Under the pieces are notes generated by a model. That model saw nothing but the letters and a program-made list of their open reading frames with translations, ran no database searches and was not told the DNA's origin. The position numbers were made by a program, and so were the translations under genes. This document shows, piece by piece, positions 6,398 through 41,155 of a stretch of DNA of 64,000 bases. Source of the stretch: Eledone cirrhosa (lineage: Eukaryota); NCBI GenBank assembly GCA_964016885.1, contig OZ024740.1:111786001-111850000 (forward strand), read 5' to 3'. Within the stretch, counting starts at the first letter, position 1. Each line of letters opens with the position of its first letter.

Positions 6398-6790
6398 GTA
6401 GAAGGGGTATTTAATTTGTTGGAAGTCCGAAAAATATAAATATTTATAACTGATTTAGAGCACTCAACAATTTACTGGAGTAAATATTCAATGATATTAA
6501 ATAAATGGCGACTATATTTATAAAACCATATTTATTTTATTATATATATTTCATATTTCAAGGGTACCAAGACAACATTGGTACGCTTTCATCAGATAAA
6601 ATACTATCCAGTGAATTTCCAACCGATAAGGTATGATTTTCATGGGTATGTCTCTATTTGTATTTTATCTGATGAAAGTGTACCAATGTTGTCTTGGTAC
6701 CCGTGAAATATATATAATAAAATAAATATGGTTTTATAAATATAGTTTCCATATACATAGTTTCCATATATATAGTTATAAATATAGTTT

Positions 6791-8144: not shown

Positions 8145-8727
8145 TTCAATTTTTAGAAATAGGAAGGTAAACAGCGACGAGAACTCTGGCTACTGTTATG
8201 ATCCAGAGACCAAAGGACTGAGTGCCCAGTAGAAACATTCTGACTTTCCAAGACCCAAGAAGGCCAAGTAAAGGAGATCCACTAGGTAGCACATGATGAT
8301 CACATTCTTCGAGAGCAAGGGCATTGTCTACATCCACCAGGTCCCTCACGGCCAAACAGTCAACAAAGAGTACTATGTAGAGGTTTTGAGGCAGTTCAGA
8401 AAGAGATTCCATCGCAATTGTACCTTCACCAAGACAATCTCCACTGACACAAATCAAATCCTGCTGACCAACTACTTGGCCGATATGGAGATACAGACTG
8501 TCCCTCATCCTCCCTGCTGTCAAGACTTAGCCCCATCCGTTTTGAAGATGTGGAGGAGATGAAGAAGGCTGTGACAAGTACCCTAGACACCTTCACTTTG
8601 GAGGACTAGAAGGTGGCCTTCCAGAAGTGGGTGGAGTGCTACAAAGTGGGAGGATCCTACTTTGAGAGAGACTAGTGTTTTGTGTTTCAATCTAAATATC
8701 CTCAACACATCTTGAGTGTACTTCATA
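8145..8727 (+). mobile_element. Decayed mariner (Tc1/mariner) transposase 3' fragment
   Basis: Motifs SDENSGYCYDPETK, MITFFESKGIVY..VPHGQTVNKEYYVEVL, FHQDN and HPPCCQDLAP (cf. HPPYSPDLAP). Contains stops and frameshifts; ends at TA. Confidence 0.85.
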
Positions 8728-8748
8728 TATATATATATATATATATAT

Positions 8749-9240
8749 ATGTAATAAAATGAGTCCCTCATCAGTGATTTTCCGAAGATCATAGATATTT
8801 CATTGCATTAAAAATCATATACCTCACGTCGGTGCAATAATAACCAAAATAAGTTATTAGGACAATTAAAACGCGTAAAGCGAGTGAGACAGGAGAACAA
8901 CAAGAGTATGGCTAACCAGGGAAAGAAACAAGCTTCAAAAATTATTCTGTTTAGCATAAGCTAGGTGAATATATGAGCGCTTTTAGAATAGACCCGACAC
9001 GAGCGAAGGCTATGAGCGGAGAGAGAAAAATAGCTTTCGTGGTGTACAGGATGAAATGAAGAGAAGAGAGAGAAACAGTGAGTGAGTGAAAGTGTGAGGA
9101 AGAGTAAACTGACATGACAGAGGGGGAGAAACAGAGAGAATGGGGGAACAGTAAGAGAGAGAGAAAAAAACACAGAATCGCAGTGGTAAATATATGTAAT
9201 AAAATATAGAGAAAAATACTGCAGGTAGCACATGGATAAC
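8749..9240 (-). repeat. Single inverted copy of the 492/493-bp unit, head-to-head with the array
   Basis: Reverse complement of the array unit. Junction palindrome gcacatggat-aac-atccatgtgc at about 9228-9250. Confidence 0.95.
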
Positions 9241-12200
9241 ATCCATGTGCTACCTGCAGTATTTTTCTCTATATTTTATTACATATATTTACCACTGCGA
9301 TTCTGTGTTTTTTTCTCTCTCTCTTACTGTTCCCCCATTCTCTCTGTTTCTCCCCCTCTGTCATGTCAGTTTACTCTTCCTCACACTTTCACTCACTCAC
9401 TGTTTCTCTCTCTTCTCTTCATTTCATCCTGTACACCACGAAAGCTATTTTTCTCTCTCCGCTCATAGCCTTCGCTCGTGTCGGGTCTATTCTAAAAGCG
9501 CTCATATATTCACCAAGCTTATGCTAAACAGAATAATTTTTGAAGCTTGTTTCTTTCCCCTGGTTAGCCATACTCTTGTTGTTCTCCTGTCTCACTCGCT
9601 TTACGCGTTTTAATTGTCCTAATAACTTATTTTGGTTATTATTGCACCGACGTGAGGTATATGATTTTTAATGCAATGAAATATCTATGATCTTCGGCAA
9701 ATCACTGATGAGGGACTCATTTTATTACATGTTATCCATGTGCTACCTGCAGTATTTTTCTCTATATTTTATTACATATATTTACCACTGCGATTCTGTG
9801 TTTTTTTCTCTCTCTCTTACTGTTCCCCCATTCTCTCTGTTTCTCCCCCTCTGTCATGTCAGTTTACTCTTCCTCACACTTTCACTCACTCACTGTTTCT
9901 CTCTCTTCTCTTCATTTCATCCTGTACACCACGAAAGCTATTTTTCTCTCTCCGCTCATAGCCTTCGCTCGTGTCGGGTCTATTCTAAAAGCGCTCATAT
10001 ATTCACCAAGCTTATGCTAAACAGAATAATTTTTGAAGCTTGTTTCTTTCCCCTGGTTAGCCATACTCTTGTTGTTCTCCTGTCTCACTCGCTTTACGCG
10101 TTTTAATTGTCCTAATAACTTATTTTGGTTATTATTGCACCGACGTGAGGTATATGATTTTTAATGCAATGAAATATCTATGATCTTCGGCAAATCACTG
10201 ATGAGGGACTCATTTTATTACATGTTATCCATGTGCTACCTGCAGTATTTTTCTCTATATTTTATTACATATATTTACCACTGCGATTCTGTGTTTTTTT
10301 CTCTCTCTCTTACTGTTCCCCCATTCTCTCTGTTTCTCCCCCTCTGTCATGTCAGTTTACTCTTCCTCACACTTTCACTCACTCACTGTTTCTCTCTCTT
10401 CTCTTCATTTCATCCTGTACACCACGAAAGCTATTTTTCTCTCTCCGCTCATAGCCTTCGCTCGTGTCGGGTCTATTCTAAAAGCGCTCATATATTCACC
10501 AAGCTTATGCTAAACAGAATAATTTTTGAAGCTTGTTTCTTTCCCCTGGTTAGCCATACTCTTGTTGTTCTCCTGTCTCACTCGCTTTACGCGTTTTAAT
10601 TGTCCTAATAACTTATTTTGGTTATTATTGCACCGACGTGAGGTATATGATTTTTAATGCAATGAAATATCTATGATCTTCGGCAAATCACTGATGAGGG
10701 ACTCATTTTATTACATGTTATCCATGTGCTACCTGCAGTATTTTTCTCTATATTTTATTACATATATTTACCACTGCGATTCTGTGCTTTTTCTCTCTCT
10801 CTTACTATTCCCCCATTCTCTCTGTTTCTCCCCCTCTGTCATGTCAGTTAACTCTTCCTCACACTTTCACTCACTCACTGTTTCTCTCTCTTCTCTTCAT
10901 TTCATCCTGTACACCACGAAAGCTATTTTTCTCTCTCCGCTCATAGCCTTCGCTCGTGTCGGGTCTATTCTAAAAGCGCTCATATATTCACCTAGCTTAT
11001 GCTAAACAGAATAATTTTTGAAGCTTGTTTCTTTCCCCTGGTTAGCCATACTCTTGTTGTTCTCCTGTCTCACTCGCTTTACGCGTTTTAATTGTCCTAA
11101 TAACTTATTTTGGTTATTATTGCACCGACGTGAGGTATATGATTTTTAATGCAATGAAATATCTATGATCTTCGGCAAATCACTGATGAGGGACTCATTT
11201 TATTACATGTTATCCATGTGCTACCTGCAGTATTTTTCTCTATATTTTATTACATATATTTACCACTGCGATTCTGTGCTTTTTCTCTCTCTCTTACTAT
11301 TCCCCCATTCTCTCTGTTTCTCCCCCTCTGTCATGTCAGTTAACTCTTCCTCACACTTTCACTCACTCACTGTTTCTCTCTCTTCTCTTCATTTCATCCT
11401 GTACACCACGAAAGCTATTTTTCTCTCTCCGCTCATAGCCTTCGCTCGTGTCGGGTCTATTCTAAAAGCGCTCATATATTCACCAAGCTTATGCTAAACA
11501 GAATAATTTTTGAAGCTTGTTTCTTTCCCCTGGTTAGCCATACTCTTGTTGTTCTCCTGTCTCACTCGCTTTACGCGTTTTAATTGTCCTAATAACTTAT
11601 TTTGGTTATTATTGCACCGACGTGAGGTATATGATTTTTAATGCAATGAAATATCTATGATCTTCGGCAAATCACTGATGAGGGACTCATTTTATTACAT
11701 GTTATCCATGTGCTACCTGCAGTATTTTTCTCTATATTTTATTACATATATTTACCACTGCGATTCTGTGCTTTTTCTCTCTCTCTTACTGTTCCCCCAT
11801 TCTCTCTGTTTCTCCCCCTCTGTCATGTCAGTTTACTCTTCCTCACACTTTCACTCACTCACTGTTTCTCTCTCTTCTCTTCATTTCATCCTGTACACCA
11901 CGAAAGCTATTTTTCTCTCTCCGCTCATAGCCTTCGCTCGTGTCGGGTCTATTCTAAAAGCGCTCATATATTCACCAAGCTTATGCTAAACAGAATAATT
12001 TTTGAAGCTTGTTTCTTTCCCCTGGTTAGCCATACTCTTGTTGTTCTCCTGTCTCACTCGCTTTACGCGTTTTAATTGTCCTAATAACTTATTTTGGTTA
12101 TTATTGCACCGACGTGAGGTATATGATTTTTAATGCAATGAAATATCTATGATCTTCGGCAAATCACTGATGAGGGACTCATTTTATTACATGTTATCCA

Positions 12201-14187
12201 TGTGCTACCTGCAGTATTTTTCTCTATATTTTATTACATATATTTACCACTGCGATTCTGTGCTTTTTCTCTCTCTCTTACTATTCCCCCATTCTCTCTG
12301 TTTCTCCCCCTCTGTCATGTCAGTTAACTCTTCCTCACACTTTCACTCACTCACTGTTTCTCTCTCTTCTCTTCATTTCATCCTGTACACCACGAAAGCT
12401 ATTTTTCTCTCTCCGCTCATAGCCTTCGCTCGTGTCGGGTCTATTCTAAAAGCGCTCATATATTCACCTAGCTTATGCTAAACAGAATAATTTTTGAAGC
12501 TTGTTTCTTTCCCCTGGTTAGCCATACTCTTGTTGTTCTCCTGTCTCACTCGCTTTACGCGTTTTAATTGTCCTAATAACTTATTTTGGTTATTATTGCA
12601 CCGACGTGAGGTATATGATTTTTAATGCAATGAAATATCTATGATCTTCGGCAAATCACTGATGAGGGACTCATTTTATTACATGTTATCCATGTGCTAC
12701 CTGCAGTATTTTTCTCTATATTTTATTACATATATTTACCACTGCGATTCTGTGCTTTTTCTCTCTCTCTTACTATTCCCCCATTCTCTCTGTTTCTCCC
12801 CCTCTGTCATGTCAGTTAACTCTTCCTCACACTTTCACTCACTCACTGTTTCTCTCTCTTCTCTTCATTTCATCCTGTACACCACGAAAGCTATTTTTCT
12901 CTCTCCGCTCATAGCCTTCGCTCGTGTCGGGTCTATTCTAAAAGCGCTCATATATTCACCTAGCTTATGCTAAACAGAATAATTTTTGAAGCTTGTTTCT
13001 TTCCCCTGGTTAGCCATACTCTTGTTGTTCTCCTGTCTCACTCGCTTTACGCGTTTTAATTGTCCTAATAACTTATTTTGGTTATTATTGCACCGACGTG
13101 AGGTATATGATTTTTAATGCAATGAATTATCTATGATCTTCGGCAAATCACTGATGAGGGACTCATTTTATTACATGTTATCCATGTGCTACCTGCAGTA
13201 TTTTTCTCTATATTTTATTACATATATTTACCACTGCGATTCTGTGCTTTTTCTCTCTCTCTTACTATTCCCCCATTCTCTCTGTTTCTCCCCCTCTGTC
13301 ATGTCAGTTAACTCTTCCTCACACTTTCACTCACTCACTGTTTCTCTCTCTTCTCTTCATTTCATCCTGTACACCACGAAAGCTATTTTTCTCTCTCCGC
13401 TCATAGCCTTCGCTCGTGTCGGGTCTATTCTAAAAGCGCTCATATATTCACCTAGCTTATGCTAAACAGAATAATTTTTGAAGCTTGTTTCTTTCCCCTG
13501 GTTAGCCATACTCTTGTTGTTCTCCTGTCTCACTCGCTTTACGCGTTTTAATTGTCCTAATAACTTATTTTGGTTATTATTGCACCGACGTGAGGTATAT
13601 GATTTTTAATGCAATGAAATATCTATGATCTTCGGCAAATCACTGATGAGGGACTCATTTTATTACATGTTATCCATGTGCTACCTGCAGTATTTTTCTC
13701 TATATTTTATTACATATATTTACCACTGCGATTCTGTGCTTTTTCTCTCTCTCTTACTATTCCCCCATTCTCTCTGTTTCTCCCCCGCTGTCATGTCAGT
13801 TAACTCTTCCTCACACTTTCACTCACTCACTGTTTCTCTCTCTTCTCTTCATTTCATCCTGTACACCACGAAAGCTATTTTTCTCTCTCCGCTCATAGCC
13901 TTCGCTCGTGTCGGGTCTATTCTAAAAGCGCTCATATATTCACCTAGCTTATGCTAAACAGAATAATTTTTGAAGCTTGTTTCTTTCCCCTGGTTAGCCA
14001 TACTCTTGTTGTTCTCCTGTCTCACTCGCTTTACGCGTTTTAATTGTCCTAATAACTTATTTTGGTTATTATTGCACCGACGTGAGGTATATGATTTTTA
14101 ATGCAATGAAATATCTATGATCTTCGGCAAATCACTGATGAGGGACTCATTTTATTACATGTTATCCATGTGCTACCTGCAGTATTT

Positions 14188-14190
<3 letters not shown>
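9241..14190 (+). repeat. Tandem array: 10 full units (493 bp x3, 492 bp x7) plus about 27 bp
   Basis: Unit starts (atccatgtgc) at 9241, 9734, 10227, 10720, 11212, 11704, 12196, 12688, 13180, 13672 and 14164. The whole structure is flanked by (TA)n. Confidence 0.97.

Positions 14191-14256
<66 letters not shown>

Positions 14257-40522: not shown

Positions 40523-41155
<633 letters not shown>

Follow-up and report, generated by a model that had tools for sequence, protein, structure and literature searches.

Hammerhead ribozymes whose core blocks follow a non-circularly permuted order have been described from environmental contigs and, one doubtful case aside, have not been placed in any known genome; those of type SGC—cleavage site (S), then GAAA (G), then CUGAnGA (C)—cleave in vitro, and a further order, type CSG, is represented by two metagenomic sequences (Eckert et al. 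2023, PMC10085705). The block model of that study places CUGAUGA and GAAA each beside a direct stem II. Amongst Penelope-like elements (PLEs), the accessible part of Craig et al. (2021, PMC8557442) presents Naiads as being without canonical hammerheads, with eight ‘half core’ cases that include Naiad_Ovul, and describes a PLE anatomy, Naiads included, of 5′ truncation, partial tandems, an inverted 5′ copy and a bias for (TA)n, together with copies that have a 30–40 bp tail at one end. Here, we consider a tandem array at positions 8749–14190 of a 64,000-nt stretch of the Eledone cirrhosa genome (assembly GCA_964016885.1, contig OZ024740.1, forward-strand positions 111,786,001–111,850,000; the whole stretch being ‘the window’). 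We believe, with a probability of roughly 0.76, that this array arose by insertion of a Naiad-related PLE, non-coding and likely non-autonomous, whose unit ends in a permuted hammerhead predicted to self-cleave.

An earlier reading of the same DNA, made from its letters alone (the ‘sequence-only reading’), had recognised a hammerhead-like CTGATGA in each unit, reported that GAAA was missing, and took the ribozyme to be either dead or an unknown variant. The motif was overlooked because it lies upstream: GAAA at 9678–9681 sits 27 nt 5′ of CTGATGA (9705), and is present in nine of the ten forward units as well as in the inverted copy, unit 8 having GAAT; no GAAA is found 3′ of CTGATGA within the unit. 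In those nine units and the inverted copy the core is complete (CUGANGA, GAAA and the U-H cleavage position; in relatives partly forced by our search patterns), with its blocks running in the non-circular order S-G-C. It is the ‘unknown variant’ half of the earlier alternative that stands, the supposed loss of GAAA falling away in favour of a permuted core. The imperfect stem II and the ‘stem-III-like’ CTGCAG hexamer of the sequence-only reading fare less well, being outside the ribozyme and not conserved in related families. A descriptor demanding the core in S-G-C order, a stem I of ≥5 bp and a stem III of ≥4 bp matches the nine forward units and the inverted copy and nothing else in the window; in 20,000 dinucleotide-shuffled versions of the unit it has 0 matches. 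By analogy with other hammerheads, the unit RNA is predicted to self-cleave between 9661 and 9662. The parts of the ribozyme are as follows.

9616–9716, plus strand: permuted S-G-C hammerhead of unit 1, recurring in every unit.
9616–9645, plus strand: upstream splint strand, from covariation.
9616–9619 with 9713–9716, plus strand: helix IIx, from covariation.
9620–9641, plus strand: splint hairpin, from covariation.
9642–9645 with 9673–9676, plus strand: helix IIy, from covariation.
9647–9652 with 9692–9697, plus strand: stem III′.
9654–9655, plus strand: GA of the kink-turn-like element; opposite it, a 3-nt bulge plus GA at 9686–9690.
9656–9660 with 9681–9685, plus strand: stem III.
9661, plus strand: A17, directly before the predicted cut.
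9662–9667 with 9699–9704, plus strand: stem I.
9678–9681, plus strand: GAAA core.
9705–9711, plus strand: CUGAUGA core, followed by G9712.
8763–8863, minus strand: permuted hammerhead of the inverted copy, core intact, predicted cut after 8818.
13124–13127, plus strand: core mutation of unit 8, GAAA to GAAT, through which its ribozyme is predicted to be inactive.

With the tested type-SGC ribozymes (HRIMA-1 and variants, PMC10085705) the unit has in common the block order site-GAAA-CUGAnGA, the conserved core letters and a short linker between stem I and the pre-GAAA strand—4 nt here, typically 3 in type SGC. It differs in setting, the published examples coming from metatranscriptome contigs and ours from an animal genome with thousands of retroelement copies, where cleavage is predicted; and also in architecture, since the direct stem II and interaction helix given in the accessible part of that paper are represented here by a splint junction and stem III′, and stem III is extended through a kink-turn-like loop. 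We infer that the unit RNA would work like an SGC hammerhead, the order agreeing and the direct stem II being absent. Within the literature searched (most subscription papers falling outside it), the term ‘type-SGC’ is found in the Eckert paper only, PMC13725137 citing that paper just in its reference list.

The fold itself is well supported by comparison of related copies. Starting from 45 cluster representatives, we aligned 22 copies from six families, leaving out 5′-truncated or chimeric rows and family G, which is without the hairpin. Across these the proposed fold is 88.2% paired, and two-sided (compensatory) change is seen at 20 of 34 pairs, as against 12.8 ± 1.8 in shuffles, none of 500 reaching as high; sliding the partner strands drops pairing to 30–47%. 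Two-sided change is distributed over all helices (III′ 6/6, stem I 4/7, hairpin 5/7, IIy 2/4, IIx 1/4, stem III 1/5), with pairing at 89.6% for stem I, 98.2% for stem III (three pairs invariant) and 83% for both IIx and IIy; III′, IIx, IIy and the hairpin were part of no search pattern. The linker between stem I and the pre-GAAA strand is 4 nt in all 22 rows, and the U-H cleavage position is A in 16, C in 6 and never G. As the core-adjacent pair of a direct stem II forms in just 12 of the 22 (54.5%), there is no ordinary stem II, and this candidate was rejected; the CUGANGA-side and GAAA-side strands each pair with the upstream strand instead.

In a kink-turn, a 3-nt bulge followed by tandem G·A/A·G pairs lies between two helices. 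The bend between stems III and III′ fits this consensus and appears kink-turn-like, with positions G1b, A2b and A1n kept in 22/22 copies and G2n in 15/22, all four being present in the window unit. In our model, stem I, IIy and III′ would come together at their far ends in a second junction, to which the kink would turn stem III back.

Other approaches to the unit were less telling. Single-sequence folding gave z-scores of 0.79 and −0.73 and is uninformative because the RNA is pseudoknotted; an Rfam scan of the window held no hammerhead among the 150 of 263 matches listed, with only sub-threshold hairpin and microsatellite matches. We also rejected a type II reading, in which GAAA-UAUC-UA would be followed by a local hairpin for stem I, family B having neither that U-H nor that stem.

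At the level of the locus, the sequence-only reading had described ten 492/493-bp units, an inverted head copy, a palindromic junction and flanking (TA)n, all of which are present in the assembled sequence; it is equally correct that the inversion point, the outer end of the inverted copy and the end of the array all fall in the ∼60 nt after CTGATGA. From left to right, the layout is this.

8725–8750, no strand: left (TA)n target tract, adjoining the inverted unit.
8749–9240, minus strand: inverted head copy, its 3′ end at the first preferred 3′ end, tail absent.
9229–9249, no strand: fold-back junction, a 3-nt spacer flanked by perfect arms.
9241–14190, plus strand: ten tandem units (three of 493 and seven of 492 nt) with a tail, the array stopping at the second preferred 3′ end.
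9727–9782, plus strand: zone of the three preferred 3′ ends (‘tail’).
14191–14251, no strand: right (TA)n target tract.

The inversion point is at 9240/9241, the arms (8919–9237 and 9241–9559) being 100% complementary with 3 nt between them. Unit lengths run 493, 493, 493 and then seven times 492 nt, Tandem Repeats Finder reports 10.1 copies with 99% matches, and the right-hand (TA)n begins at about 14191. The longest stop-free frame is of 144 amino acids, on the CT-rich strand; there is no coding sign, and the unit is non-coding. Amongst the listed public contigs compared with the left flank and junction, none bridges the (TA)n or the fold-back, copy number and inversion being those of the assembly; public contigs from three studies do contain parts of the family, with tandem joints in two of those studies, and no RNA data sets are among the listed public holders of family sequence. 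A decayed fragment of a mariner-type transposase (Pfam Transposase_1, E = 4.8e-6; window 8150–8724) stops at the left (TA)n.

The sequence-only reading had taken the array for a satellite. A search with the unit in the 3.0-Gb genome of its own species gave 1,723 candidates, 39 of them scored, with full-length matches 94–100% identical: what emerges, in place of a one-off satellite, is a dispersed retroposon family, of which the array is one copy. An exact 31-nt pattern has 113 matches (control 0), a looser motif pattern at least 8,751 (controls 0/0), and a second looser pattern 3,954, partly overlapping the first set (control 1/0); patterns for families B and G have 2,887 and 20 matches, respectively. 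Unit spacings range from about 480 to 670 nt across families, and the core is kept throughout. The core and three of the stem III pairs were built into these patterns, as were, for some families, the GA and a portion of stem I. No core pattern was involved, however, in recovering families A, B and D; family B (637-nt unit) stands beside family A in loci L077 and L068, and it is the comparison of A with B that gives the core order as cleavage site, GAAA, CUGAUGA. The identity of ribozyme and body between these two families (0.73 versus 0.71, shuffled body 0.66) is uninformative because the alignment is gapped. The older family G (L161–L180) has the same block order, with the splint hairpin absent and a G after CUGAGGA able to pair with the pre-GAAA C/T.

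Insertion marks were read at 61 loci, taken from the first 100 matches listed with segmental duplicates dropped and L025 left out. Here, 70 of 71 arms end within one ∼55-nt zone 3′ of the ribozyme, 5′ ends are scattered over the unit, and nearly all copy ends adjoin (TA)n; 24 of the 51 single-orientation copies are longer than one unit. Inverted heads occur at 10 of the 61 loci, and in nine of these ten one arm halts at the first 3′ site and the other has the tail. The three 3′ sites, counted from the C of CTGATGA, lie at +23–31 (11 arms), +55–63 (11) and +67–77 (24), a resolution obtained on 40 loci analysed earlier, a set in part biased by length. All the marks of a Naiad-type PLE are present: (TA)n target, 5′ truncation, partial tandem, inverted head and one-sided tail. 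Copy ends, inverted heads and one-sided tails match the anatomy given in the accessible part of PMC8557442, and PLE-type spread of the family is, from these marks, well supported. The sequence-only reading had inferred a PLE/retrozyme-type origin with (TA)n targeting and ends tied to the ribozyme region, and the anatomy of the dispersed copies bears this out.

Two further features of individual copies were seen. Where the second 3′ site is used (L012, L015, L021, L077, L080), (CT)n of up to tens of repeats precedes the (TA)n, as if the enzyme had slipped and so seeded a microsatellite. At L077 (6100–7500, minus strand) a G-like remnant, two B units and seven A units plus tail stand head-to-tail, the families joining at short microhomology at the 3′ end of B; the series suggests serial template jumps or repeated insertion.

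How the array came to have ten units is a separate matter. Four variants are common to several units and absent from other loci (site 67, 0/32; site 87, 0/38; site 130, 0/41; site 273, 0/49); at sites 130 and 273 all four combinations occur among the units, and the inverted copy has one private variant in common with units 1–3 and 6. Being private and mosaic, these variants speak against the ten copies as simple rolling-circle products of one monomer circle. The multimeric or rolling-circle origin proposed earlier is accordingly not supported in its pure rolling-circle form, with a mixed multimer kept as an option; local duplication with conversion, a mixed multimer, or mixing in the assembly would each be able to give the mosaic.

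For the link with Naiads, we read the Naiad consensus file by eye (CTGATGA places 1–55 of 62, and the first 15 of 23 and of 25 for CTGACGA and CTGAGGA), taking record names from headers and file order; motifs split by line ends would escape such a reading. The same S-G-C order with splint is seen in two octopus, three Acropora, one Clytia, two Morbakka and one likely Darwinula record, and the 3′ ends of the two octopus records also have the splint hairpin loop and kink-turn-like loop of the window unit, a likeness that would by itself point to a cephalopod host. About six nematode Naiad records appear to show the order C-S-G at their 3′ ends. At L208 (5000–7000), a decayed Naiad-like open reading frame (ORF) has decayed S, G and C blocks, in order, at its 3′ end. 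Together with the likeness to octopus Naiads, this remnant makes descent from a Naiad 3′ untranslated region likely. Upstream of the motif in the fetched loci, no ORF belongs to the element, the PLE ORF at L114/L115 being on the opposite strand. Judged against the accessible part of PMC8557442, Naiads and our family are alike in favouring (TA)n, in having truncated 5′ ends, partial tandems and an inverted 5′ copy, and in the one-sided tail, and differ in that Naiads encode endonuclease and reverse transcriptase whereas the unit encodes nothing. The MRC1-type PLEs of Chlamys in the same account are likewise non-autonomous, multicopy and head-to-tail, with a 3′ end resembling autonomous families; they are, however, from green algae, and a permuted ribozyme is absent from what that part of the paper says of them.

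Metazoan non-LTR (long terminal repeat) retrozymes, as presented in the accessible parts of PMC7761336 and bioRxiv 10.64898/2026.07.22.740005, are a further parallel: non-coding tandem units with one hammerhead each, found as monomers to multimers, for which PLE-dependent spread is proposed. They are defined by type I hammerheads, whereas the hammerhead of our unit is non-circularly permuted and not of type I; type I descriptors would miss it. After 2021, the literature searched that joins Naiads and hammerheads consisted, in its accessible parts, of this retrozyme preprint, with type I models only, and an unrelated fungal paper. Elements of the type I kind do occur in the genome. At L114 (3900–7700, duplicated in L115) and at L022 (2150–2860), an SGC unit stands head-to-head with a type I hammerhead element with no (TA)n between, the L114 partner being a PLE fragment with reverse transcriptase motifs and a weak GIY-YIG match; such pairs hint that other PLE enzymes can use SGC-family RNAs. 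In the window, minimal type I hammerheads lie in fold-back insertions at 40850, 42202, 42907 and 43336, and also at 6595/6669, 14566/16532 and 25467/26942; four pass a simple stem I test, the others being known as CTGATGA..GAAA motifs only.

A hint of cleavage in vivo comes from the 5′ ends of copies, nine of 51 lying 0–19 nt past the predicted cut where 2.1 would be expected (binomial 2e-4; three of the nine re-read by eye); amongst 36 copies of family B, read by eye, there are five break points a short way past the cut and one a short way before it. The priming sites lie 65–120 nt past the cut, from which it follows that a cleaved linear monomer would template short copies only; longer ones would depend on a downstream ribozyme left uncut, on a multimer or on a circle, the last being the template in the model for retrozymes in the accessible part of PMC7761336. 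We would therefore picture the cycle as follows. Read-through transcripts may fold into a pseudoknotted cage, the kink-turn-like bend bringing stem III back to where stem I and helix IIy end; cleavage would set RNA 5′ ends and may release ∼492-nt monomers, base-paired end-to-end and able to circularise. A PLE reverse transcriptase/GIY-YIG enzyme acting in trans would nick (TA)n and prime internally at T-rich or TA-like sites 12–65 nt past the ribozyme, giving the tail, and a second priming or fold-back would give an inverted head without one. Local duplication/conversion, or the copying of a mixed multimer, would account for at least part of the growth to ten units. In PMC11167929 the tail is connected with reverse transcription that starts internally, and the fixed 3′ ends and one-sided tail seen here match this.

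Several points weigh against a catalytic hammerhead borne by a Naiad relative. The patterns used already demanded the core and three stem III pairs and, for some families, the GA and some of stem I; kinship amongst rows can beat a shuffle control without any structure; and a second measure, of ‘further pair types’, is not above shuffles (138 of 500). Stem II is unlike that of tested SGC ribozymes, and kink-turn position 2n is G in 15 of 22 copies only. In the window subfamily the helices are weak (stem I and IIy each −2.9 kcal/mol as duplexes), III′ has one mismatch, and the pseudoknot-free minimum-energy fold differs from ours (−19.3, against −10.0 for that part of our model which is nested). 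The excess of 5′ ends is measured against a uniform null in which neither truncation bias nor TA microhomology is taken into account. Lastly, no intact Naiad was found in the species’ own genome, two exact protein-motif patterns giving 0 and 1 (decayed) matches.

The alternative that survives best, unlikely as we hold it, is that the fold is real and no longer catalytic, being kept as a ‘handle’ that recruits a PLE enzyme and positions internal priming. Clustering of 3′ ends directly after the fold would suit this, as would the many copies with two or more uncleaved motifs (24 of 51 exceeding one unit), the weak helices and the non-standard stem II; retention of all catalytic core letters and U-H across families, including those found without a core pattern, and the lean of 5′ ends to just past the predicted cut argue the other way. 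Far less probable is an ordinary, circular-order hammerhead assembled across three tandem units or between molecules, the shuffled order being apparent only. As a matter of sequence logic, the C, G and S blocks do recur in standard order over successive units, and dimer-dependent hammerheads exist in PLEs; however, many insertions have a single motif, III′, IIx and IIy tie the blocks together locally and covary, and Naiad consensus 3′ ends (by eye) show one local copy. A DNA-level satellite or assembly artefact that resembles a ribozyme by chance we regard as a shade more improbable again: the array-private mosaic does point to local amplification, and no listed public contig bridges the locus, but copies with retroposon ends on many contigs, further arrays and inverted heads at other loci, public contigs from two studies that contain tandem joints, and a descriptor silent on 20,000 shuffles speak against it, and it accounts for the number ten rather than for the element. 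That the unit is a decayed type I hammerhead stripped of its GAAA is the least credible, for whilst no GAAA follows CTGATGA inside the unit and the listed Rfam matches contain no hammerhead, the GAAA, U-H and stems I and III sit upstream and covary, and the downstream ‘stems’ are not conserved.

Returning to the permuted hammerhead that we favour, with its predicted self-cleavage, we rate as slightly better than an even bet the broader proposition that it is active and of a new four-strand topology: the hidden ribozyme of Naiads across animals, driving a class of retrozyme invisible to type I–III searches. In such a ribozyme, stem II would be severed from CUGAUGA and rebuilt on the upstream splint, with the kink-turn—possibly bound by an L7Ae-family protein—closing the cage, and the SGC order would be that of cnidarians, crustaceans and cephalopods, CSG that of nematodes. 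This would place non-circularly permuted hammerheads in an animal retroelement at thousands of copies, with a fold not in PMC10085705, and would offer a direct answer to the apparent lack of hammerheads in Naiads as reported in the accessible part of PMC8557442. A 111-nt transcript with a predicted cut, together with a natural dead variant (unit 8), makes catalysis readily testable. In its many copies the family also documents PLE priming, tail formation and inversion as they occur in nature, and its existence would imply that ribozyme and retrozyme censuses built on types I–III miss a class.

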